A DNA stretch of 64,000 nt, taken from IMG/VR virus record IMGVR_UViG_3300030029_000205. One strand, written 5' to 3'. The stretch comes from a virus. Its lineage: Duplodnaviria; Heunggongvirae; Uroviricota; Caudoviricetes. Positions 1,578 to 53,165 of this stretch are shown piece after piece (position 1 is the stretch's first letter; each line of letters opens with the position of its first letter). The notes beneath the pieces are model-generated. The model was not told the DNA's origin and ran no database searches. It saw nothing but the letters and a program-made list of their open reading frames with translations. The position numbers and the translations under genes are program-made.

Positions 1578-1608
1578 AGGAATACATTATAAAATTTTTA
1601 GGAATACA

Positions 1609-1637
1609 TTGTAAAAATTTATGAAGTATGTTAAAAT
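1609..1637 (+). promoter_or_regulatory. promoter TTGTAA-N17-TAAAAT (with duplicated AGGAATACATT upstream)
   Basis: Hexamers and spacing. Located immediately after the terminator at 1546-1577. Confidence 0.55.
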
Positions 1638-1667
1638 AAAAATACAAAATTAGAAAGGGTGATTTAT

Positions 1668-2024
1668 ATGAGTATAACTCGTGTAGGCGAAAAATCAAAA
1701 GCAAATAATGGTATGGAGATGAAGATTATAGGGTATCGTAGTAGTTCGGATATTGATGTCCAGTTCGAAGACGGTACTATAGTTAAGGGTAAGAGATACC
1801 AGCAGTTTAAAAGAGGTGAAATTGCAAACCCTAATGTAAAGAAGAAAACCTTAAGAGCAGACAGATTGGGTAATGAAGTAACTGCAAAAAACGGTCAGAA
1901 AATGAAAATTGTTGCTTACCGTAGTGCATACGATGTTGATGTGCAGTTTGAAGATGGCACAAAGGTTAATAATCGTTCTTATGCAAACTTTGAAAAAGGC
2001 AGCATAAGAAATCCAAATAAGTAA
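1668..2024 (+). CDS. DIDVQFEDG-repeat protein (2 repeats)
   Basis: ATG 1668, 7 nt after AAAGGGTG. Two ~50-aa repeats of NGMxMKIIxYRSxxDIDVQFEDGxxVxxKxYxxFxxGxIxNP. Paralog of 3721, 4820 and 7874. Confidence 0.75.
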   Translation: MSITRVGEKSKANNGMEMKIIGYRSSSDIDVQFEDGTIVKGKRYQQFKRGEIANPNVKKKTLRADRLGNEVTAKNGQKMKIVAYRSAYDVDVQFEDGTKVNNRSYANFEKGSIRNPNK

Positions 2025-2047
2025 GGTGTTGAAAGGAAGTAAAAAGT

Positions 2048-2452
2048 ATGGCTTTGATTGATGATTTAAGAGATAAAACCTACAAAGAAGCTGTAGATCT
2101 TTTGGAGAAATACGGCAAGGGTTGTATCGTTAGACCAACAGGATTCGGAAAGACAGGTATTCTTACAAGGTTAATCAATGATTATACCGCAGGTATCAAA
2201 GGCAAAGAACCAAGGGTATTATATTTGTACCCTAATGAGCCGATTAAGAATGCAGTGTTAAATTTCTACTACAAAAGCAAGGGTATGCGGATACCTACTA
2301 CCAGAGAAATTCCAGGAGTACAGTTTATAACTTATACTAAGTTGGCAAGAATGGATAAACCTGAGGATATAGAGGGTTTTGATATTCTGTTAAGTTGTTT
2401 ATGTCTGATGAATGTCATAAACTTGGAGGTACAAAGATTTCCAATAATATGA
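2048..2452 (+). CDS. SF2 helicase, N-terminal segment (Walker A TGFGKTG), ends just after start of motif II
   Basis: RPTGFGKTGI P-loop. Terminates ...EGFDILLSCLCLMNV. The -1 frame continues with SDECHKLGG. Confidence 0.7.
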   Translation: MALIDDLRDKTYKEAVDLLEKYGKGCIVRPTGFGKTGILTRLINDYTAGIKGKEPRVLYLYPNEPIKNAVLNFYYKSKGMRIPTTREIPGVQFITYTKLARMDKPEDIEGFDILLSCLCLMNVINLEVQRFPII

Positions 2453-3708
2453 ACAAGTTCAGGAATAAATATAAAGATGTAAAGTATGTAGGAGCTACAG
2501 CTACTCCAGATAGAATGGATTTATTTGATGAAGTATATGAGTTTTTTGATGATAAGGTTGTATCTTCTTATACTCTACACGATGCTTTTGTAGATGGGGT
2601 ATTGCAGAGACCATATTACTGCTTTTGCTCTTATAGTCTTGAAGATGACTCTAAGTATCTCGAGAAAAGGGTAAAAGAAGAGTTTAAGTATGTAGAGGGT
2701 AACTGCGTAAGTGAATATAGAGAACTTATGGAAGCTACTGCAATTCAGATGGCAGAACTGCATAATATGCCTAAAATTATTAGAGATGTATGTTCTAAGT
2801 GTATTGAGCCAGATTCTTATATGAGAGGGGTAGTTTTCTTTGCAGACTATAACCATATTAATGCAAAAGAGAAGGTTGTGGTAAATTGGTTCAAAGAAGC
2901 TTTTCCTGATTACAGGGTAAATGTTATAAGAGTAACTGGTCAGAACAGGAAAACAAGAGAAAATGCTCAAATACTTGATTATCTTGTACCTAAAGATAAA
3001 ACTATTGACATTATTACCAGTGTAGATATGCTGAATATGGGGTATCATGTAGATAACCTTAAGTTTGTAGGAATGTACAGAGGTACTCAGTCAGGGGTAG
3101 TATATGCTCAGCAGTTAGGTAGAATTCTGAATTCGGGTAGTATGGAGCAAGGGGTAGTTTTCGATTGGGTAGATAATATCCATAGGGAATCTATGTATGA
3201 TGTTCTTGGTAGAGAAAGTAAAAAGGTTACTAAGGCTAAAGAGAAGTATGCTGAGCTAAAAGGAAAGTTGTCAGAAGCTAAGGGTAATGTAAAAGTTTTT
3301 TCTCCTGAAGAGCTTAAAGAGTACAAAATATTAGAGGGTAGATTTGAAAGACCCAATAAAGATTGGTGGGACGATAGTCCTAATAAATTGTTACCTGAGG
3401 ATTTGATTGCCACTTCTCACGAGGCTACTTACAGAGAGTTAATAGCTAAGACAGTAGCTGAACCTATTGCAATGCGTGCAAGACAGGCTTGGAAGAATTG
3501 GTTAGATGCAGGTGGTGATATAGCAGACGGAACAGCTCAGGGTATTCTTGATAATGCTTTGCTACCTAATTTGCCTTTAGGACCTTATTGTGCAAGTAAA
3601 AGACTTACTATTGAAAAGGTGTTAAGCATTATTCTCGGTGAAGGAGATTATACAGGTATGGTAAAGAATTACACAGAGAAGTGTAAAAAGCAGGGTATAG
3701 TTTGGTAA
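2395..3708 (+). CDS. SF2 helicase, C-terminal segment (DECH box, TATP motif III, QQLGRILN motif VI)
   Basis: Frame is open from 2383 (stop TGA at 2380). MSDECH, VGATATPDR and AQQLGRILNSG motifs. No convincing RBS of its own, so it is probably joined to 2048-2452 by a frameshift or sequencing indel. Confidence 0.7.
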   Translation: MFMSDECHKLGGTKISNNMNKFRNKYKDVKYVGATATPDRMDLFDEVYEFFDDKVVSSYTLHDAFVDGVLQRPYYCFCSYSLEDDSKYLEKRVKEEFKYVEGNCVSEYRELMEATAIQMAELHNMPKIIRDVCSKCIEPDSYMRGVVFFADYNHINAKEKVVVNWFKEAFPDYRVNVIRVTGQNRKTRENAQILDYLVPKDKTIDIITSVDMLNMGYHVDNLKFVGMYRGTQSGVVYAQQLGRILNSGSMEQGVVFDWVDNIHRESMYDVLGRESKKVTKAKEKYAELKGKLSEAKGNVKVFSPEELKEYKILEGRFERPNKDWWDDSPNKLLPEDLIATSHEATYRELIAKTVAEPIAMRARQAWKNWLDAGGDIADGTAQGILDNALLPNLPLGPYCASKRLTIEKVLSIILGEGDYTGMVKNYTEKCKKQGIVW

Positions 3709-3720
3709 GGATGTGAAAAA

Positions 3721-4803
3721 ATGAGTGTTTTAAGGGACGATAGAGTGGGAGAAGTACGAAGGGCGAATAACGGTATGCTAATGAAAATATTAGCATACCG
3801 TTCCGTAAAAGATATTGATGTACAGTTTGAAGATGGTGTAATTGTATGCAATAAAAGATATAGTGCCTTTGACAAGGGTAATATAGGTCATCCTAAAGTT
3901 AAACTTTCTAAGGTATCTGACGAAGATATTAAAAGATATTTGGGTATGGAGAAAGTTATGAGTTGTGGTATGAAGGCAAAAATCATAGCTTATCGAAATA
4001 CTTTGGATATAGATATACAGTTTGAAGATGGTACTGTGGTTGAACATAAAACAATACACTCTTTTAAAACAGGTTATATTAAGAATCCTAACATAGCTAA
4101 TTATATGTCTAAGACAGGTAGGGTGGGCGATAGGGCAATAGCTAACAATGGTATGGGTATGACTATTATTAAATACATAAGTCGAGATAATATGACAGTA
4201 AGATTTGATGATGGTTTTATTAAAGAGGGTGTAAGTTATTCAAACTTTATTAATGGTAGAGTGGCTCATGATGGTATGTCAACGATGAATAAAATCTATT
4301 CTTCAAAGCATCTGCATGAGAGGAATAAGATGTTAAATGGTTTATGGGCAGAGATTATAGCTTATCGTTCTACAAAAGATATAGATGTGAGATTTGATAA
4401 CGGTGTAGTAGTTAAGAATAGGTCTTATAACAGATTTAATAAAGGTTTGATAGCCTTGCCTTTAAATAGGTTAGGTCAAGTAATTGTAACATCTTGCGGT
4501 TTAAAGGCAGAGATAGTAGGGTATCGTTCAGTTGATGATTTGGATATATTGTATGAAGATGGGTGTAAAAGAGAGCATACCTCAATAAGAATATTTAATA
4601 GTGGTAATCATCCTTTGTTTGTAACCTCAGGTAGGGGTTTACATATAAGAAAAGGGCATTCGTTTTGTGGCTTTACTAATTTGTTGAAGTCTTTTGAGTA
4701 CAATGGTGACAGCTATTTTATGTGTAAAGATGCTGATGGTAAAGGTCAGGTGCGTTCTCTCCATGATATGATGAAAGAAGCTGGGGTACATTCTAAATTT
4801 TAA
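3721..4803 (+). CDS. DIDVQFEDG-repeat protein (about 5 repeats) with conserved C-terminal FEYNG...CKDxxGKGQV domain
   Basis: Repeats RVGEVRRANNGMLMKILAYRSVKDIDVQFEDG... C-terminal tail is shared with the 4820-6016 protein. Confidence 0.8.
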   Translation: MSVLRDDRVGEVRRANNGMLMKILAYRSVKDIDVQFEDGVIVCNKRYSAFDKGNIGHPKVKLSKVSDEDIKRYLGMEKVMSCGMKAKIIAYRNTLDIDIQFEDGTVVEHKTIHSFKTGYIKNPNIANYMSKTGRVGDRAIANNGMGMTIIKYISRDNMTVRFDDGFIKEGVSYSNFINGRVAHDGMSTMNKIYSSKHLHERNKMLNGLWAEIIAYRSTKDIDVRFDNGVVVKNRSYNRFNKGLIALPLNRLGQVIVTSCGLKAEIVGYRSVDDLDILYEDGCKREHTSIRIFNSGNHPLFVTSGRGLHIRKGHSFCGFTNLLKSFEYNGDSYFMCKDADGKGQVRSLHDMMKEAGVHSKF

Positions 4804-4819
4804 AAAGGGGTTGAGAGTT

Positions 4820-6016
4820 ATGAAAATAGACAGAGTAGGTGAAGTAAATAAAGCCAATAACGGTATGTTAATGAAGATAGTAGCCTATCGTTCATATGAC
4901 AGTATAGATGTTCAGTTTGAGAATGGTATTGTAGTTAATAATAAATCCTACGGTGATTTTAAAAAAGGGAAAATAAATTTGCCTAAGGCTTTAGAGAGGG
5001 TAGGTGAAGTGAATAAAGCTAAAAATGGTATGTTAATGAAGATAATAGAATATAGAAATGCCAAGGATATAGATGTCCAATTTGAAGATGGTGTAGTAGT
5101 TAAGAGTAAGTCCTATAAGGATTTTAAAGGAGGGTGCATACCTCACCCAAAATTTTCAACAAAGGTGTGTAAAAATAGAGTGGGGGAAGTCCGAAGATCT
5201 AATAATGGTATGTTGATGAAAATAATAGCCTATCGAAGTGCTAATGATATAGATGTTCAGTTTGAAGATGGTAAAGTAGTTAAAAATAAAAGTTATGGTA
5301 ATTTTAAAGCAGGTTATATATCTTGTTCTCAAACATTACCAAAGGATAGGGTAGGTGAGGTTAATAAAGCTACAAACGGGATGATGATGAGGATAATAGA
5401 TTATAGAAGTGCTAATGATATAGATGTTCAGTTTGAAGATGGTAAAGTAGTTAAAAATAGTAGTTATGGTAATTTTAAAACGGGGCATATATCTCCTTAT
5501 CGTCAAACTTTAATAAAGGGAAGAGTAGGTGAAGTTAATAAAGCCACAAATGGAATGTCGATGAAAATATTAGCTTATAGAAATACGGATGATATAGATG
5601 TTCAGTTTGAAGATGGTATGGTAGCAAGAAATAAAACATACTATAATTTTTTATCGGGAAAAATAGGTCATCCTCTTGGAAATACAGTAAAGAGAGTAGG
5701 TGATGTTAAAGTTGCAAATAATGGTTTGCGTATGAGGGTAATTTCTCATGAAACTGATAAGAATACAGATGTGCAATTTGAGGATGGAATTATAGTTACT
5801 AATAAAAGCTACCATAGTTTTACAAAAGGTCAAATAGCTCACCCAATGATAAGTAAATGGGGTACAAGTAAGAGTTTTTATGGTTTTACTGATATAAAAA
5901 AGTCTTTCGAATATAATGGTATGGTGTACTACTTGTGTAAGGACTTGCAAGGTAAGGGGCAGGTGTACACTCTACAGCAAATGATGGAATTAGCAGGTGT
6001 AGAACCTGTATTTTAA
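4820..6016 (+). CDS. DIDVQFEDG-repeat protein (7 repeats) with the same C-terminal domain
   Basis: ATG 4820 after AAAGGGG. Seven ~57-aa RVGEVNKAxNGMLMKIIxYRSxxDIDVQFEDGxVVxNKSYxxFKxGxI repeats. Directly tandem to its paralog. Confidence 0.8.
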   Translation: MKIDRVGEVNKANNGMLMKIVAYRSYDSIDVQFENGIVVNNKSYGDFKKGKINLPKALERVGEVNKAKNGMLMKIIEYRNAKDIDVQFEDGVVVKSKSYKDFKGGCIPHPKFSTKVCKNRVGEVRRSNNGMLMKIIAYRSANDIDVQFEDGKVVKNKSYGNFKAGYISCSQTLPKDRVGEVNKATNGMMMRIIDYRSANDIDVQFEDGKVVKNSSYGNFKTGHISPYRQTLIKGRVGEVNKATNGMSMKILAYRNTDDIDVQFEDGMVARNKTYYNFLSGKIGHPLGNTVKRVGDVKVANNGLRMRVISHETDKNTDVQFEDGIIVTNKSYHSFTKGQIAHPMISKWGTSKSFYGFTDIKKSFEYNGMVYYLCKDLQGKGQVYTLQQMMELAGVEPVF

Positions 6017-7873: not shown

Positions 7874-8383
7874 GTGTCAGTTGTAGAAGAAGTATCAAAG
7901 TCAAAACAGGGGTATAAAATGACTGTAATTAGCGGTTCAAAAGATGGTTTGGTATCAGTTAGGTTTGATGATGGTACTATTGTTAGAAACAAGCCGTACA
8001 AAGATTTTTTGGAAGGTAATATAGAAAAGCCTTTATGTAAAAAGATAGGTGAGGTGTCATATTCAAATAGCGGTGAAAAAATGGAGATTGTTTGTTATAC
8101 AAATAATGAAAATATAGCTGTAAAGTTTGAAGATGGAACAGTAGTCTATGGAAGAACATACAATGCTTTCAAAAGAGGTGAAATCAAGAAGCCAAGAATA
8201 GAAAAGTATGGTAGAAACAATAAACATAATGAAAGAATAGGTATAGAATCCATAAACTTAAATGGTTTAAAAATTAAAATAGTTGAGTACCGTAATAGTA
8301 ATGATATTGATGTAAAGACCGAGGACGGTAGGGTATTAAAACATCAGACTTTTAAAAAGTTTAAAGACGGTAAAATATATTAA
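7874..8383 (+). CDS. DIDVQFEDG-repeat protein (3 diverged repeats)
   Basis: GTG start after GAGGTGG. Repeats GEKMEIVCYTNNENIAVKFEDGTVVYGRTYNAFKRGEIKKP. Confidence 0.75.
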   Translation: MSVVEEVSKSKQGYKMTVISGSKDGLVSVRFDDGTIVRNKPYKDFLEGNIEKPLCKKIGEVSYSNSGEKMEIVCYTNNENIAVKFEDGTVVYGRTYNAFKRGEIKKPRIEKYGRNNKHNERIGIESINLNGLKIKIVEYRNSNDIDVKTEDGRVLKHQTFKKFKDGKIY

Positions 8384-8750: not shown

Positions 8751-9455
8751 ATGGATTTAAGGGATACTCGACCGTATTATGTAGTACATACTAAAGGAGA
8801 CTGTAAAATTTATCGTTGTTCGAAAGATTTTGATTTCTTGACCAAAGACGGTATTCCTCACAGTGTATATAAGTGCTATACAATAGAGGAGGCTAAAGCC
8901 TGTAAAAGAGGTAATAATCCCTCTGATAAGGACGCTCGTTATATATTTGATGATACAAACAATTATCCTTATGCTTTTATAGATGGTTCTTTTAATCATG
9001 CTAAAAAGGTGTATGGTTGGGGTGGTTTTATAGACTATTGGGGTACGAGGTATATGATTAAGGGTAACGGTGATAATCCTGAGTATGCAAAGTATAAATC
9101 CACAATCGGGGAAGCATTAGGGGTAATGAATGTAGTGGATAAAGCCGTTGAGTTGGGTATCACTCATTTGGTAATATACTTTGATTTTGCTCCATTAGAA
9201 ACTTGGTTATTTGAAGGGTGTAAAAGTGAAAATGAAGTAAGAAAGATATATAAAGACCATATAGAAAATGCGGTATCTGATGGGTTACATCTTATATTTA
9301 AAAAGGTAGAAGCTCATACAAAAGTAAGGGGTAACTGTATAGCTGATATGATAGCTAAGGATGCAGTAGGTGCGAAAAGGAAAAAGAAGTCTTTACCCTT
9401 TAGTTTTTTCAATGTAAGAAATACTGAAAGAGAATATGCTTTTATGCGTGTTTGA
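8751..9455 (+). CDS. rnhA: ribonuclease H1 with N-terminal hybrid-binding (HBD) domain
   Basis: ATG 8751, 11 nt after GGAAGGGGG. N-terminal YYVVHTKG..IY...F....G...YK.YT.EEA..A matches the RNase H1 HBD. Catalytic core FIDGSF, GEALGV, VEAHTKVRGNCIADMIAKDA. Confidence 0.75.
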   Translation: MDLRDTRPYYVVHTKGDCKIYRCSKDFDFLTKDGIPHSVYKCYTIEEAKACKRGNNPSDKDARYIFDDTNNYPYAFIDGSFNHAKKVYGWGGFIDYWGTRYMIKGNGDNPEYAKYKSTIGEALGVMNVVDKAVELGITHLVIYFDFAPLETWLFEGCKSENEVRKIYKDHIENAVSDGLHLIFKKVEAHTKVRGNCIADMIAKDAVGAKRKKKSLPFSFFNVRNTEREYAFMRV

Positions 9456-26284: not shown

Positions 26285-26372
26285 GCTGGTATGGTGGAAT
26301 AGGCAGACACAAGGGACTTAAAATCCCTCGGTCATTGCGACCGTATCGGTTCAAGTCCGATTACCAGCACCA
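26285..26372 (+). tRNA. tRNA-Leu (anticodon TAA), type II with long variable arm, CCA encoded
   Basis: Acceptor GCTGGTA/TACCAGC. Anticodon stem AGGGA/TCCCT with loop CTTAAAA. Variable arm CGGTC...GACCG. T-arm TCGGTTCAAGTCCGA. Discriminator A plus CCA. Confidence 0.85.
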
Positions 26373-26517
26373 TGAGGTGGGTATTAGAGTTACCCATCTT
26401 TACATCCAAAGGTAGTCCTCCAACTACATAAAGCATTTAAATGGGTGTGTTAGGTTTTCATAAAAAAACTCTCCTAAAAGAAGTCCTTGCAATTAGTGAG
26501 TGTTGCAAGGACAACCT

Positions 26518-26591
26518 GTAGATGTAGTTTAATGGTAAAATGTCAGTTTCCCATACTGAGGTTGTGGGTTCGATTCCCATCATCTGCTCCA
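26518..26591 (+). tRNA. tRNA-Gly (anticodon CCC), CCA encoded
   Basis: Acceptor GTAGATG/CATCTGC (one G-U). D-arm GTTTAATGGTAAAAT. Anticodon stem TCAGT/ACTGA with loop TTCCCAT. T-arm GTGGGTTCGATTCCCAT. Discriminator T plus CCA. Confidence 0.6.
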
Positions 26592-26890
26592 CTGGTGATT
26601 CACCAGTTTATTATAAGAAAACCAGCTTATATGTTGCAGGTAAATTTCTTATAAAAACCTACAGAAAGCAAGTCCTTGAATAAAGGTTGAGTAGGGTAAG
26701 ATGCTTTAAAGTTATGCACCTTTAGCTTAAAGATAGCAACCGTGTAAAAACGGTAAAGACGGTAGGGTATCCATTATAGAAGGGGTTAATGGTACTCTTT
26801 ATGGTGCTAATTATTCGAGTAAAGTTTCTTCAGTAATCTTGCTCGAATACAAACTGAAGTGACCAACCCCTATATAGGGGTTGGGTATAT

Positions 26891-26958
26891 GGAGATGTAG
26901 TATAAGTAGTATCTTAGCTATGTTAAGGGTATGAGTGCAAGTCTCATCATCTTCACCA
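26891..26958 (+). tRNA. short tRNA-like element (good acceptor and T-arm, reduced D region; anticodon unresolved)
   Basis: Acceptor GGAGATG/CATCTTC. T-arm ATGAGTGCAAGTCTCAT. ACCA at the 3' end. Only 65 nt before CCA, so possibly a degenerate tRNA. Followed by a terminator at 26958-26981. Confidence 0.3.
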
Positions 26959-26981
26959 CCCATCCAGAATGGGTTATTTTT
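26958..26981 (+). terminator. small terminator hairpin (ACCCAT-ccaga-ATGGGT + TATTTTT) after tRNA-like 26891
   Basis: 6-bp stem plus T-tract. Confidence 0.45.
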
Positions 26982-27078
26982 AAAGAGTGCTTACTTTCGC
27001 TGTTTCTTTCTTTTTTGTACAAATTGATTACATAACATAACCGTTCAAATCTTTATAAAGTAAGCACTCAATTGAATA

Positions 27079-27152
27079 TGCAGAAAGTAGTTTAATGGTA
27101 GAATACCCGCCTAAGAGGAGGAAGATGCAGGTTCGACTCCTGTGTTCTGCAG
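27079..27152 (+). tRNA. tRNA-like gene, type and anticodon unresolved
   Basis: Acceptor TGCAGAA/TTCTGCA, 7 bp perfect. D-arm TAGTTTAATGGTAGAAT. T-arm GCAGGTTCGACTCCTGT. Anticodon stem pairs poorly in every register. Loop region contains CCTAAGAGG. Confidence 0.45.
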
Positions 27153-34524: not shown

Positions 34525-34538
34525 ATAGGAGGTTGTGT

Positions 34539-35186
34539 ATGCGTAGAACAAGTATAATGTTAGAGTTCTCAGATGATATTTATGATTCTTTAGTAGAGCC
34601 TTTAAAAAAGAATAGAACATTTTCTAAATTAGTAGTATCTTTAATCAATGGGTACATAGAGGACGGGTATATTCATGCATATGTAGATGATACTTTAAGT
34701 AATCTTAAAAAGGCAGCTGTTGACTCTTTTAATAGTTCTATTGATTCTATGTCAGAGTCTTTAAGCAATATGGGATTGTTTACAGATGAACTAAATTCCG
34801 TATCTTCAAGTGCAAAAACTAAGTTTACTGAGAAGTATAACGAAGCATCAAAAGGGGTAAAGCCTGAAAGTAGAGTTGATAGCAAGGGTGATATTGATAA
34901 AATCAACAAGCGTATTGATGATATGCAAGAGGATGTTAATGCCAAGTTAAGCACTCTTATTGATTTAATTAGTTCTTTGTCAACGGGTGGTGTTCCTGTT
35001 AAGAAAAATGTGGAAAATGTTATTCCAGATGTTTCCAATGTTAAGAGAGATGTGGAAAATGTTATTCCAGATGTTTCCAATGTTAAGAGAGATGTGGAAA
35101 ATGTGGAAACCACTGATACCGAAGAGGAAAAAGAGGCTCTTGATTTTATGTCTAACCTGTTAAATGGTAACTCTTTTGAATTTTAA
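34539..35186 (+). CDS. coiled-coil protein with perfect 14-aa tandem repeats (VENVIPDVSNVKRD x2.3)
   Basis: ATG 34539, 7 nt after AGGAGG. DNA tandem repeat 35010-35105. Confidence 0.7.
   Translation: MRRTSIMLEFSDDIYDSLVEPLKKNRTFSKLVVSLINGYIEDGYIHAYVDDTLSNLKKAAVDSFNSSIDSMSESLSNMGLFTDELNSVSSSAKTKFTEKYNEASKGVKPESRVDSKGDIDKINKRIDDMQEDVNAKLSTLIDLISSLSTGGVPVKKNVENVIPDVSNVKRDVENVIPDVSNVKRDVENVETTDTEEEKEALDFMSNLLNGNSFEF
35010..35105 (+). repeat. in-frame 42-bp tandem repeat (2.3 copies) within CDS 34539-35186
   Basis: GTGGAAAATGTTATTCCAGATGTTTCCAATGTTAAGAGAGAT repeated exactly. Confidence 0.85.
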
Positions 35187-41147: not shown

Positions 41148-41189
41148 ATTATAGAATGTTTTAATAACTGTATATAGGAGGTATTGTTT

Positions 41190-41900
41190 ATGGGTAATAC
41201 AGTAGTAAAAATTAGTAAGTATGATTACAATAACAAATACAAAGATGTACCAGAATTGAGCAGTTTAAACTCAAGAGAAGATGTGGCTACATTCTTAGAT
41301 ACTTTTGAAGAGTCAGGTTTAAAAGGGTACAATATTGAAAAGATACTGACAAAAAATTCAAAGTATATTTTTGTGTACAGTGATAAGATAACTGGTTGGG
41401 ACTTTTTCAAAGAGATTAATAAGTTATCTTCTATTGATATTGATATAACTCCTCAGAATATAAAAATTTTGTTTGATAAAACAAAATCGAGGGGATATTT
41501 CACTGAAGAAGATTATACTCCAGCTACTAATACGAGTGATATGTCTATGAGTGTAGACGAAGATGCTCCTACAGGTTTTATGGGGGACGATTCACCTATA
41601 TTGGATAGTGTTGATAGAAGATTACTCCATGTAAGAAGGGGTGTAAGACTACCTATAAATGACGCTCACGGTATTATCATAGGTAGAAGTACCTCTCAGT
41701 CGGAGTACACAGTGAATAATACAAAGGTTTCTCGTAAGCATGCACAAGTGTATAAAGAAGGTAATAAATGTATGGTACACGATTTTGATTCTGCTAATGG
41801 TACTTTTATTGATGGTTTAAGAGTTAGGTCTGATTTAGACAGAGAATTACTGGTAGGTAGTTCTTTAATGTTGGCAGACGAAGAGTTTAAACTTGTGTAA
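41190..41900 (+). CDS. FHA-domain protein
   Basis: ATG 8 nt after AGGAGG. C-terminus IIGRSTSQSEYTVNNTKVSRKHAQV....DFDSANGTFIDGLRV is a classic FHA (GR...SR.HA...D..S.NGT). Confidence 0.8.
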   Translation: MGNTVVKISKYDYNNKYKDVPELSSLNSREDVATFLDTFEESGLKGYNIEKILTKNSKYIFVYSDKITGWDFFKEINKLSSIDIDITPQNIKILFDKTKSRGYFTEEDYTPATNTSDMSMSVDEDAPTGFMGDDSPILDSVDRRLLHVRRGVRLPINDAHGIIIGRSTSQSEYTVNNTKVSRKHAQVYKEGNKCMVHDFDSANGTFIDGLRVRSDLDRELLVGSSLMLADEEFKLV

Positions 41901-41918
41901 TCAAGAGGTAGGTATCTT

Positions 41919-42608
41919 ATGAGAATAGATTCTTTATCTGATGTAGGTATAAAAAGAAAAGAGAACCAGGATAATTTCTGGTCATCAGTGCTTTTGGTAG
42001 ATGGCAAGGAAGCAGGGGTAATCTGTATTTGCGATGGTATGGGTGGTTTAGATAACGGTAAGTTGGCAAGTAAAATGGTGGTAGAAGGGGTAAGAGACTC
42101 AATACTTAGTAAATTTGATTTCAATGATTTATCTAATGTCTTAGCATCTGTTAATGATAGTATAAGGTCATTGTATGGTGGAGATAGGTCTAAGGCTATG
42201 GGTACAACCTGTACTGTATTGGTTTGCTATGATAATAAATACAAGATAATACATATAGGTGACTCACGAGCATATAAAATTTCTAATGGTACTTGTACTT
42301 TACTTACAGAAGACCATTCCGCTGTAAAGCAGTTCAATATATCTAAGAAAGATAATCCTGTTTTGTGGAACAAGTATAAAAGCAAGTTAACAAGGTGTAT
42401 TGGGGTAGAACCAAGTATTAAACCGTATATATCAGAGGGTACTTATAGTATTGGAGATATATTTGTACTTTGTTCCGATGGCTGTTGGCACTATTTTGAA
42501 GATTTCAATCTAAGTAAAGGTACTATAAATGATTTAAATTCTTTGGTTAGAAGTTGTATATCTAATGGTGAAACTGACAACATAACAGTTAGTGTTTTAT
42601 ACATTTAG
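41919..42608 (+). CDS. PP2C-family Ser/Thr protein phosphatase
   Basis: DVGIKRKENQDNF, ICDGMGG, VLCSDGCW motifs. Confidence 0.85.
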   Translation: MRIDSLSDVGIKRKENQDNFWSSVLLVDGKEAGVICICDGMGGLDNGKLASKMVVEGVRDSILSKFDFNDLSNVLASVNDSIRSLYGGDRSKAMGTTCTVLVCYDNKYKIIHIGDSRAYKISNGTCTLLTEDHSAVKQFNISKKDNPVLWNKYKSKLTRCIGVEPSIKPYISEGTYSIGDIFVLCSDGCWHYFEDFNLSKGTINDLNSLVRSCISNGETDNITVSVLYI

Positions 42609-42784
42609 GAATTTTTAAAATTTTTAAGATATGGTAAAAATAGGGAGTTATGAATTATTATTTATGTATTAAAATATTGTGAGATATGTATCTGATTTTT
42701 CGTTAATATTTGCCTATTTTTTGTGGTTGAGTTTCTGTTGAGCTTTAATTTCGTAAATAGCGTAATGAAAGGAGTTGGAATCTG

Positions 42785-44458
42785 ATGGCAAATAGAAGGG
42801 AACATTTGAACAATGGTGACCTTGTATTAAACGGTAGGTATGAAATACTTAAATGTATTCATTCTAAAGGAATGGCTAATGTTTATCTTGTAAGAGATAC
42901 TCAATTAGGTAAACAATGGTGCTTAAAAGAGATTAGGTTATCTCAAGCAGGTAGGGAAAATATTGAGTATATAAGTCTTATGCAAGAGGCAAACATACTG
43001 CGTTCCTTAAATAATGAGAAGATACCAAGAATTACTACCATTGATAATGATGGTGACTCTTTGTTTGTGGTAATGGATTTCTTAGACGGTGTTACTCTAA
43101 AGGATTTTGTACAGGAGAAAGGCAGAATACCTGAAGAGCTGGCTGTTAAATGGATGATTCAGATAGTACAAGCCGTTGGGTATTTGCATAGTGAGAGGTC
43201 AAATAAGAAGCCTATCTTTTACAGGGATATGAAACCAGATAACTTAATGATTAGGTCAAATGGTGTAATAAATATATTCGATTTCGGTATTAGTGTTAGG
43301 ATAGAGAATCCTAATCAATTACCAGAATACACTCTGGGTACTCCAGGTTATGTTGCTCCAGAGCAGAAAAAGAAAAATTTACCTATGGATTTAAGGTCAG
43401 ATATCTATTCAATGGGAAGAACTTTTTATTTTATGTTGACAGGGGTAGACCCAAGGGGTTTCATAGGGGAGAAGTTAAAACCGATTAGTGATTGGAGTCC
43501 AGATGTTTCGCCAGTATTGATATCTATTGTCAATAAATGTATGGAAGAGAATCCTAACGATAGATATCAGAATTGTGAAGAGTTACAGTATGCTTTAGAG
43601 AATTACAAGTATTCTGATGAAAAACATCGTTCTTCCGCAAAGAGGAAGGTTAAGGTAGTAATTGGATTAGCCGTAGCAGGCATTACAATGGGTATCTTCA
43701 GTATAATTCCTTTTGGTATAAACGGAGCTCAGTCTAAAGATGCTTACAATAAAGCTTTAGTAGTTGCTCAGCAAAGTGGTAGATTAGAAGATTATGATAA
43801 GGTGCTTTCTATGAATCCACTAAGCATACCACCATATGAAGGGTATATAGATGCTATTAAGGAAGATGGTGTTTTTTCTTTAGATGAAGAAAAAGGTCTA
43901 TTAAATCATATAAATCCTAATTTAATAGACTTAAAAAATGATAAGGATTATGGTAAAATTGCTTTTGATATAGGTAAGCTATATTGGTTTTACTATCCAT
44001 CTGAAGATGGAAAAACCTTGTCTATAAAATGGTTTGATGATGCAATAAGCAGTGGTTTTAATAAGGAAGAGTCAACCGCTTATTACAAGTTAGGAGTGTT
44101 TAATAGAGATATTTCTAAATCTGTTAAAGAAGCAAGTGATAGCGGTATGTACAAGGATTATTGGGACAATCTGTTATCTATACAGAATATGGATACAAGT
44201 GATATAATTACTTTACAGACAAATATTTCTATTGCTGAGTGTATTTCAACATATGCATATAACTTAAAGAAAGATGGGGTATCTTATGAAGATATTTCAA
44301 AAGAATTGAAGTTATTAAATGGTTTTGTTAGCAGTTATAAGGTAGATAGTTCTACTTTAGATACTATTAAGTCCTTGTATGCTGAATTAAAATCTGATTT
44401 GGAGGGGTTAAGTGATAGGGTTGATGTGATTTATGGTAAAAGTGGAGGTGGTAATTGA
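42785..44458 (+). CDS. Hanks-type Ser/Thr protein kinase with transmembrane segment and extracytoplasmic C-terminal domain
   Basis: YEILKCIHSKGMANVY (G-loop), WCLKEI (Lys), YRDMKPDNLMI (catalytic loop), DFGIS, GTPGYVAPE. TM VVIGLAVAGITMGIFSIIPF, then ~270-aa domain. Confidence 0.85.
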   Translation: MANRREHLNNGDLVLNGRYEILKCIHSKGMANVYLVRDTQLGKQWCLKEIRLSQAGRENIEYISLMQEANILRSLNNEKIPRITTIDNDGDSLFVVMDFLDGVTLKDFVQEKGRIPEELAVKWMIQIVQAVGYLHSERSNKKPIFYRDMKPDNLMIRSNGVINIFDFGISVRIENPNQLPEYTLGTPGYVAPEQKKKNLPMDLRSDIYSMGRTFYFMLTGVDPRGFIGEKLKPISDWSPDVSPVLISIVNKCMEENPNDRYQNCEELQYALENYKYSDEKHRSSAKRKVKVVIGLAVAGITMGIFSIIPFGINGAQSKDAYNKALVVAQQSGRLEDYDKVLSMNPLSIPPYEGYIDAIKEDGVFSLDEEKGLLNHINPNLIDLKNDKDYGKIAFDIGKLYWFYYPSEDGKTLSIKWFDDAISSGFNKEESTAYYKLGVFNRDISKSVKEASDSGMYKDYWDNLLSIQNMDTSDIITLQTNISIAECISTYAYNLKKDGVSYEDISKELKLLNGFVSSYKVDSSTLDTIKSLYAELKSDLEGLSDRVDVIYGKSGGGN

Positions 44459-51200: not shown

Positions 51201-51770
51201 ATGAAAGCAGGTTTATATACAAGAGAAATTAGAAGGTATTTAGAAAACAGAACTGATGAGGGTAGAAACAGATTACTGTTAGTTTTTATTCCCTTTATTG
51301 ATAATATAGCAGAGTCTTACATATCGGATAATAAGGGTATCATTACTGAAGTTGAAGACTTTAAGCAGACTTTATATGTATGTACTATGGAGTTTATTGA
51401 AAATTATAACTACTTGGCAACTAACAGTGTATCTACATTTAAACAACGCTTGGAAAAGCATTTAAATGCTGACATTAACAGGTATGTTAAGAGTTTAAAT
51501 AGAAATTTAGAAGTAGCAGTATGGTTTGATACTGATAAAAATGACTTTGATTTTATTAAAGCTTATGAAGATGAGTTTGCTTTTAAGGAGTTAGTAAAAG
51601 CATTAGAGTATTTGACTCCCAGAGAGAAGCAGATTATAATGTGGAGGTATTTTGATTGTTTTACTCTTGACAAGATAGCAGATTATTATAATATCTCAAG
51701 AAATAGAGTTAAAATGATTATAGATAAAGCAATTTTTAAATTACAAAAATATACAAAGGTGCTTGTATAA
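51201..51770 (+). CDS. sigma-70-family (ECF-like/phage) sigma factor
   Basis: Region 4: EYLTPREKQIIMWRYFDCFTLDKIADYYNISRNRVKMIIDKAIFKLQK. Promoter AGGAAATACTTGCAA-N17-TAAAAT at 51138-51166. Confidence 0.75.
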   Translation: MKAGLYTREIRRYLENRTDEGRNRLLLVFIPFIDNIAESYISDNKGIITEVEDFKQTLYVCTMEFIENYNYLATNSVSTFKQRLEKHLNADINRYVKSLNRNLEVAVWFDTDKNDFDFIKAYEDEFAFKELVKALEYLTPREKQIIMWRYFDCFTLDKIADYYNISRNRVKMIIDKAIFKLQKYTKVLV

Positions 51771-52106: not shown

Positions 52107-53165
52107 ATGGAAAAGAAGAAAACAGCAGCAGATATTTTAATTGAGGCTTTTTTAAAGGATGTTGACGAAAGAGGTACAATGCCTTGGCAGAGACCATATG
52201 AGAGATATAATGCTTTTAATTGGTATACAAAGAAAGCTTACAGAGGATTTAATAGACTTCTCTTACCATTTGGAGAGTATCTTACAAAAAACCAAATAAC
52301 TAAGTATAATGCTGAGAAAGGGTATATTGAATTATACGAAAATGGTAGGTTGAAAAATATAACTCCTCAGGCTTACTATATGCAGAAGGGTATTAAGTGG
52401 TTACCAGTAGTATTTTTTAAGGTGGATAAGAAATCAAGTAGCAGGGAAGAAATAGCTGAAAACTTTCCTGACTTTGATAAGTTTAATTCAGATGAAATTG
52501 CTTATGCAGGAAGAAAGAACGGATACTTATATTATGTTGAAAAGGGTAAATGTATTAAATCCCGAAACATTTTAAGATATTATGATGTAGCTGACAGGAA
52601 GCATTTCAGAAATGCTAATGGTGACTATCTACCATCCAGAATTGAAACAGGTGAGGTAGAGATAACTAAATCTGATGCTAAAGAAGTAATGGATAATTAC
52701 ATAAACCTTTCAGGTGTAAAGGTAGATTATAAGAATTATGGCACTCCTTGTTATGTACCAGAGTGGGATTTGGTTAGATTAAATCCTCTTACTAAATCTG
52801 AAGATGCTTGGTTTTCCACTGCATTTCACGAATTGGCTCATAGTACAGGGGCAGCATCAAGGTTGAACAGAAAGGGTGTTGTCTCACCAAGTGTAATGAG
52901 AGAATCTACATATGCTGTAGAAGAGTGTATTGCTGAAATCACAGCTTGTCTATGTTGTGCAGAGACAGGTATTTCAGATTTTGAGACCTCTTGTTCTGAG
53001 GAGTATGATAACAGTGTATCATATGTTCAGGCTTGGAAGAAAAGAGTAAAAGACTGGGGTAAAAATTTTATTTACATTGTATCTCAGGCTGATAAGGCTT
53101 TCAATATGATATGTGGTGCACCTGACAGTGTTGCACTTGATGAGGATGGTCAGGAAATAGAATAA
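52107..53165 (+). CDS. ardC: ArdC-like antirestriction protein (ssDNA-binding N-domain plus zincin-like metalloprotease C-domain)
   Basis: N-terminal MPWQRPY...KAYRGFNRLLL (ArdC-N). C-terminal FHELAHSTGAASRLNR (HExxH followed by a RLNR-type motif). Confidence 0.7.
   Translation: MEKKKTAADILIEAFLKDVDERGTMPWQRPYERYNAFNWYTKKAYRGFNRLLLPFGEYLTKNQITKYNAEKGYIELYENGRLKNITPQAYYMQKGIKWLPVVFFKVDKKSSSREEIAENFPDFDKFNSDEIAYAGRKNGYLYYVEKGKCIKSRNILRYYDVADRKHFRNANGDYLPSRIETGEVEITKSDAKEVMDNYINLSGVKVDYKNYGTPCYVPEWDLVRLNPLTKSEDAWFSTAFHELAHSTGAASRLNRKGVVSPSVMRESTYAVEECIAEITACLCCAETGISDFETSCSEEYDNSVSYVQAWKKRVKDWGKNFIYIVSQADKAFNMICGAPDSVALDEDGQEIE

Follow-up and report, generated by a model that had tools for sequence, protein, structure and literature searches.

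A two-base duplication splits, and probably inactivates, an SF2 helicase gene in an uncultivated human-gut phage

The helicase locus and its surroundings

Two overlapping open reading frames on the plus strand of the window (the whole 64,000-nt stretch of phage DNA analyzed here) carry the motifs of an SF2 helicase. The upstream frame, ORF A (2048–2452, 134 aa), is preceded by the Shine-Dalgarno-like sequence AAGGA. It encodes a TGFGKTG P-loop at 2138–2158, as an earlier note on this DNA had described, and its C-terminus, ...EGFDILLSCLCLMNVINLEVQRFPII, is followed by a TGA stop at 2450–2452. The second frame, ORF B, is offset by -1. It is shut by a TGA at 2380–2382, stays open from 2383 to 3708 and reads YSVKLFMSDECHKLGG. 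DECH (2407–2418), TATP (2497–2508) and QQLGR (3109–3123) are all found in ORF B, so the earlier report of a -1 frame open from 2383 with these three motifs holds.

Pfam assigns ORF A to positions 21–73 of the ResIII model, in the first third of the model, and ORF B to ResIII positions 127–164 plus Helicase_C. The Helicase_C match has an E value of 5e-5 and a score of 23.9 against a cut-off of 23.5. A conceptual fusion of A and B covers ResIII 21–164 of 164 with an E value of 9e-11. The matches of the pieces and of the joined protein identify ORF A and ORF B as halves of one SF2 helicase and exclude a chance resemblance. Motif I (Walker A, GxGKT) and motif II (DExH) are both present, though in different frames, and a second RecA-like domain with motifs III–VI (TAT, QxxGR) follows. 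In relatives all of these motifs lie on a single polypeptide; in the window the polypeptide breaks after codon 112.

We mapped the gene by tblastn with the intact homolog P0123. Codons 1–112, including the Walker A motif, occupy 2048..2383 on the plus strand (99% identity to residues 1–112), and codons 113–552 occupy 2386..3708 on the same strand in the -1 frame (99.8% identity to residues 113–552). At 2382..2385 (+), DNA alignment against contigs L001–L003 and against an intact twin, L072, places a 2-nt insertion, a tandem AT duplication that turns GAT into GATAT and whose exact placement is ambiguous. ORF A then runs out of frame from 2384 to 2452 (+), adding 22 non-native residues (ILLSCLCLMNVINLEVQRFPII) before its stop.

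The protein is a generic phage SF2 DNA helicase of the ResIII/DExH type. It matches phrog_16 (PHROG 16, "DNA helicase") at 3.5e-31. Sequence matches to solved structures are weak, with hits to the putative helicase 7clg and, over motifs V–VI, to T4 UvsW (2oca, E = 1.6e-4). An AlphaFold model of the intact protein, built on 55 homologs (pLDDT 81.7), has two alpha/beta domains. Foldseek searches with this model gave E. coli RadD as the closest structure (E ~1e-12), followed by DEAH, XPB and Hef helicases, and matched phage proteins named "SSL2 superfamily II helicases" at E ~1e-13. The intact protein resembles RadD, XPB, Hef and the phage SSL2 helicases in having motifs I, II (DECH), III (TAT) and VI (QxxGR) and two RecA-like domains. 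It differs from them in that no solved or cultured-phage protein exceeds 25% identity with it and in that the gene in the window is interrupted. A blastn search with positions 1600–4200 had no matches among 50,697 phage records, and tblastn of the intact protein against phage records returned only matches of 25% identity or less, with no close homolog from a cultured phage. The helical C-terminal domain of about 170 residues matches no assigned family. One relative, P0137 (561 aa, on ENA contigs of up to 182 kb), is chimeric: about 165 N-terminal residues follow the window type, and the remainder a second, ~60%-identical type (P0004-like), which points to recombination between two helicase lineages.

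The genes flanking the helicase gene (1659–2024, 3721–4803, 4811–6016 and 7874–8383) encode arrays of a repeat of about 45–55 aa, NGMxMKIIAYRSxxDIDVQFEDG...KxYxxFKxGxI. Pfam detects only Phage_T4_Gp30_7 in them, with 5e-14 as the sum over the repeats, and both copy number and in-frame indels differ among strains. The gene at 3721–4803 contains a perfect hairpin at 3772–3799, GGTATGCTAAT-GAAAAT-ATTAGCATACC. In ERZ27256553 (L004) the loop, 3783–3788, reads ATTTTC, the reverse complement, so that the encoded protein has IFS instead of MKI; this looks like a template-switch inversion of the loop, or is possibly an assembly quirk. Farther along, at about 35,040 (gene 34533–35186), two genomes that carry the frameshift differ by one 42-nt tandem repeat unit, in frame. 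The window also encodes a signaling-type set that is unexpected in a phage, with an FHA-domain protein, a PP2C phosphatase and a Ser/Thr protein kinase in a row. After them come a 2044-aa Big_13-like protein, a sigma-70 region 4 protein and an MPTase-PolyVal protein; Pfam matches to the set and the genes that follow lie at 41184–44458, 51201–51770 and 52107–53165. Three tRNA genes, Leu(taa), Gly(ccc) and Leu(aag), occupy 26285–27152, and none is a suppressor.

The two-base lesion and its intact relatives

Three contigs encoding the homolog P0001 (L001–L003) read GGTTTTG--ATTCTG where the window has GGTTTTGATATTCTG, and the AT is the sole indel near the junction. The duplication converts GATTCTG to GATATTCTG. 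In a pattern check, GATATTCTG was found in L004–L007, L018 and L019, and GATTCTG in L001–L003. Because the insertion is a +2 change, a single protein appears to need a -1 shift. The earlier note had placed that shift around 2393–2403; the lesion itself lies at 2382–2385, about 10 nt upstream. A tandem duplication of this type suggests replication slippage as its origin.

A search of 5.8 billion proteins yielded more than 500 homologs, and the 120 listed are single ORFs of about 500–640 aa. The best of them, P0001 (552 aa, 97% identical), crosses the junction uninterrupted as ...EGFDSVKLFMSDECH. All of the 55 homologs that we aligned are likewise single ORFs. Residues G32, G34, K35, T36, D120, E121 and H123 are invariant in this alignment, as are T150, A151, Q354, Q355, G357 and R358. 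The earlier note had proposed to look in orthologs for a single continuous ORF, and this is what they have; the two-ORF layout is not common to them. Its option of a genuinely split helicase, as a conserved arrangement, is not supported by this comparison.

Removing the AT restores a 1659-nt ORF. Its product is identical to P0146, which is encoded on a Logan contig from ERR11478283 (L072). Over ~2.3 kb, beginning some 2 kb before the site and ending roughly 370 nt past it, the DNA of this intact twin equals that of the window except for the AT; within the gene there are seven further differences, all synonymous. The window allele is thus set apart by a discrete lesion from an otherwise identical intact one.

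Among the listed cluster members, the ORF A tail is confined to the exact 134-aa protein. There are two 90% clusters, and this covers 15 of the 40 members read out of 175 in the first and all 10 in the second. Members P0136, P0138, P0140 and P0142 are shortened without an abnormal tail; we took them to be partial proteins at contig ends and left them out of the count of disruptions. Protein-seeded scans returned only more distant relatives, all of them intact single ORFs, the best being 94% identical in the same JGI dataset and 83% identical in a human gut assembly.

The substitution pattern indicates that strong purifying selection acted on the helicase gene up to a very recent time. With P0001-type alleles as the outgroup, the branch specific to the window carries 13 synonymous changes and one conservative K to R change, an excess with a probability of 1e-8 under a neutral expectation in which about 80% of random changes are non-synonymous. 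Between the window and P0123-type alleles there are 35 synonymous and two non-synonymous differences. The genomes that carry the frameshift are near-clonal, at about 1e-4 differences per site, which indicates that the frameshift is young. They are too alike for substitutions to be counted, so dN/dS after the frameshift is uninformative.

Error, recoding and residual function

Since one 2-nt indel is the sole defect, we considered whether the true genome has an intact helicase gene and the frameshift is a sequencing or assembly artifact, as one option in the earlier note held. However, the exact 134-aa ORF A, nonsense tail included, occurs on eight contigs, six of which are 50–200 kb long, from at least four accessions and three assembly sources. 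Carriers include ENA ERZ27256553 (185,375 bp, MEGAHIT k119), ENA ERZ27307808 (k141), JGI 3300045988 (184,950 bp) and Logan ERR912140. The insertion site is not a homopolymer, and GATATTCTG is present in every copy that we fetched. Public records may share read sets, and JGI 3300045988, judging by its very high contig and UViG numbers, may be a catalog drawn from public gut metagenomes; the loci from JGI, ERR912140 and ERZ27307808 all match the window at 100% identity. The ERZ27256553 contig, in contrast, has differences of its own: over 12.4 kb it departs by the inverted 6-nt loop, and over another 26 kb by two SNPs and the gain or loss of a single 42-nt repeat unit. From these differences, at least two distinct populations or read sets, assembled with different programs, carry the insertion, although the accessions may be re-assemblies or come from one cohort. 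Searching IMG/VR for exact copies of the mutant junction gave no matches, and neither did a variable-gap pattern for both alleles run on JGI metagenome contigs; the contig is apparently absent from both collections. We conclude that a simple error behind the AT insertion is very unlikely.

The overlap of the two frames in a -1 relationship is typical of programmed frameshift sites, and a regulated full-length helicase might be made by a programmed -1 (or +2) frameshift or by transcriptional slippage. Programmed -1 frameshifts, such as those of the lambda G/GT tail chaperone and dnaX, use a slippery heptamer, usually with a stimulatory structure or an internal Shine-Dalgarno sequence, and are conserved across relatives. 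The helicase locus resembles these two systems in having two overlapping frames offset by -1, the downstream one without a ribosome-binding site of its own, and it departs from them in the slippery site and in conservation. No slippery heptamer of the form X XXY YYZ is present on reading 2375–2400 in frame A (GGT TTT GAT ATT CTG TTA AGT TGT), the stretch 2383–2400 included, and the interval has no codon pair able to re-pair in the -1 frame. If ribosomes slipped on the run of four T at 2377–2380, they would land on the TGA at 2380–2382. This run is also the longest near the site and falls short of the six or more A or T that transcriptional slippage would need. The RNA fold of 2375–2480 (106 nt) has a minimum free energy of -20.6 kcal/mol, which is not significant (z = -1.75; 12 of 200 shuffles were as good) under a model that covers structures other than pseudoknots. 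Apart from the AT, the sequence around the site is base for base that of the strains with an intact gene, which argues that no dedicated recoding signal has evolved, and the 120 listed homologs and the intact twin are all single ORFs, so the two-frame arrangement is absent from relatives. We therefore give programmed recoding, another option of the earlier note, next to no credence. Two other forms of recoding were considered and rejected. Reading TGA or TAG as sense is contradicted by the use of TAA, TGA and TAG to end 30, 9 and 3 of 42 long open frames and by the lack of a suppressor tRNA in the window; nor would any reassignment of stops bring the P-loop and DECH into one frame. A ribosome that hopped between GAT 2381 and GAT 2407 would leave the protein without its motif II strand.

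It is also conceivable that the helicase still works, either because ORF A associates with an ORF B product that starts at 2395 or 2401 by coupled or leaky initiation, or because rare spontaneous frameshifting suffices. The mutant sequence is the consensus in several near-complete assemblies of about 185 kb, so the phage replicates well, and an ATG at 2401 stands directly before SDECH. Ribosomes traverse the start of ORF B, which lies inside ORF A, and the ATGA stop/start overlap at 2449–2452 could permit some coupled re-initiation. Intact relatives have that overlap too, and DECH would be missing from a protein begun at 2449. This genome depends on Shine-Dalgarno sites for initiation: a core of at least 4 nt precedes 43 of the 48 ORF starts in the window, many with 6–7 nt of AGGAGG. 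None of the three candidate plus-strand restarts of the second part (TTG 2395, ATG 2401 and ATG 2449) has even a 4-nt core upstream, in agreement with the earlier note, which had seen no ordinary ribosome-binding site before the MSDECH start. The locus therefore has neither of the marks of a naturally split helicase, a second start with its own ribosome-binding site and a split conserved in orthologs; no relative is split at the same place.

The structural model also argues against a two-piece enzyme. In the model, the break at residue 113 falls in a loop before strand 116–120, which leads into DECH, so the cut would cross the core sheet of RecA domain 1, and initiation at M118 (ATG 2401) would leave out most of this strand. 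With the chain broken just before the core beta-strand of motif II, reassembly of the two pieces into an ATPase is unlikely, and ORF A moreover bears a 22-residue hydrophobic nonsense tail. The absence of non-synonymous changes relative to the intact twin might be read as a sign of continued function; however, the clone is too young for this to be informative. Nonsense mutations and deletions of the same gene in other strains (described below) argue for dispensability rather than rescue. As nothing favors complementation by the pieces, we regard residual function as improbable.

This leaves the recent inactivating mutation, the one of the four options in the earlier note that stands. We think it likely, on the sequence comparisons above, that the split gene is a real and recent loss-of-function mutation of one SF2 helicase gene in an uncultivated human-gut phage of about 185 kb. 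The allele is neither programmed nor conserved. The 2-bp tandem duplication at 2382–2385 hit a single helicase gene, and under this explanation translation from the normal start would yield the 112 native residues with the P-loop followed by the nonsense tail. The downstream 440 codons (motifs II–VI) would be translated poorly or not at all, since no candidate start has a Shine-Dalgarno sequence in a genome that otherwise relies on strong ones. The helicase is most likely inactive in the carrier clone.

Other disruptions of the gene and what they may mean

While reading cluster members, we found four further independent disruptions of the same gene in sister strains. One is a nonsense mutation, CAG to TAG at codon 233 (equivalent to about 2746–2748 in the window), present in L074 (4001–5659), L075 and L076 and on six contigs from several runs in all. 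The others are a 10-nt deletion of gene nt 553–562 (L073), an extra G in a GGGG run at gene nt 546 (L077), and a 6.3-kb deletion that joins helicase nt 540 to about window position 8855 at a TT microhomology (L078). This last deletion takes the 3' two-thirds of the helicase gene and five neighboring genes. The L073, L077 and L078 lesions are each known from a single Logan contig and call for caution, whereas the TAG allele is present in multiple samples. The L073 and L077 lesions and the left breakpoint of the L078 deletion fall within 22 nt around the GGGG run (gene nt 540–562; window ~2589–2611), a region that may be a mutational or an assembly hot spot.

Together, the window allele and the four sister-strain disruptions suggest that the phage can do without this helicase, at least in some conditions. 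The phage remains viable, probably because this helicase is accessory: a replication module upstream encodes another large helicase-like ATPase (AAA_30/UvrD_C_2, 1122 aa), a Toprim primase and an SbcCD-like pair. Some 3 kb downstream of the TAG nonsense allele, that strain also encodes a 559-aa helicase of the P0002–P0004 type, with the same Pfam families, which could compensate. Within the 64-kb window, out of a genome of about 185 kb, tblastn revealed no paralog that might compensate.

Loss of the gene could also be adaptive and not just tolerated, if it allowed escape from defense systems that sense phage helicases. There are at least five independent disruptions of a strongly conserved gene, two of the alleles recurrent across samples, and a precedent exists in phage T4. 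All T4 escape mutants of Retron-Eco11 had frameshifting uvsW deletions that truncate the N-terminal RecA domain (PMC12746101), and these mutants show that such SF2 helicases are dispensable and open to counter-selection (PMC12746101). As in the T4 UvsW escape alleles, a frameshift ahead of motif II truncates an accessory phage SF2 helicase within its N-terminal RecA-like domain, with viability retained. The T4 alleles, however, are deletions selected in the laboratory against a known defense, whereas the window carries a natural 2-bp duplication in a metagenomic clone, and its helicase has marginal similarity to UvsW. Escape by analogy with T4 is therefore a speculative reading that we would not expect to hold, although, if true, the split gene would be a natural case of a gut phage discarding a sensed protein.

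For annotation, the two ORFs should be treated as one disrupted helicase gene and not as two genes or a recoding event. The case also illustrates that public assemblies can settle the choice between error, programmed shift and mutation without recourse to raw reads, once exactly the truncated product is found in separate assemblies and a sister strain is found to encode exactly the repaired one. A frameshift knockout is a known kind of event and matters little on its own. Recurrent knockouts in natural gut populations, on the other hand, suggest that this helicase is conditionally dispensable and possibly under selection by host defenses.
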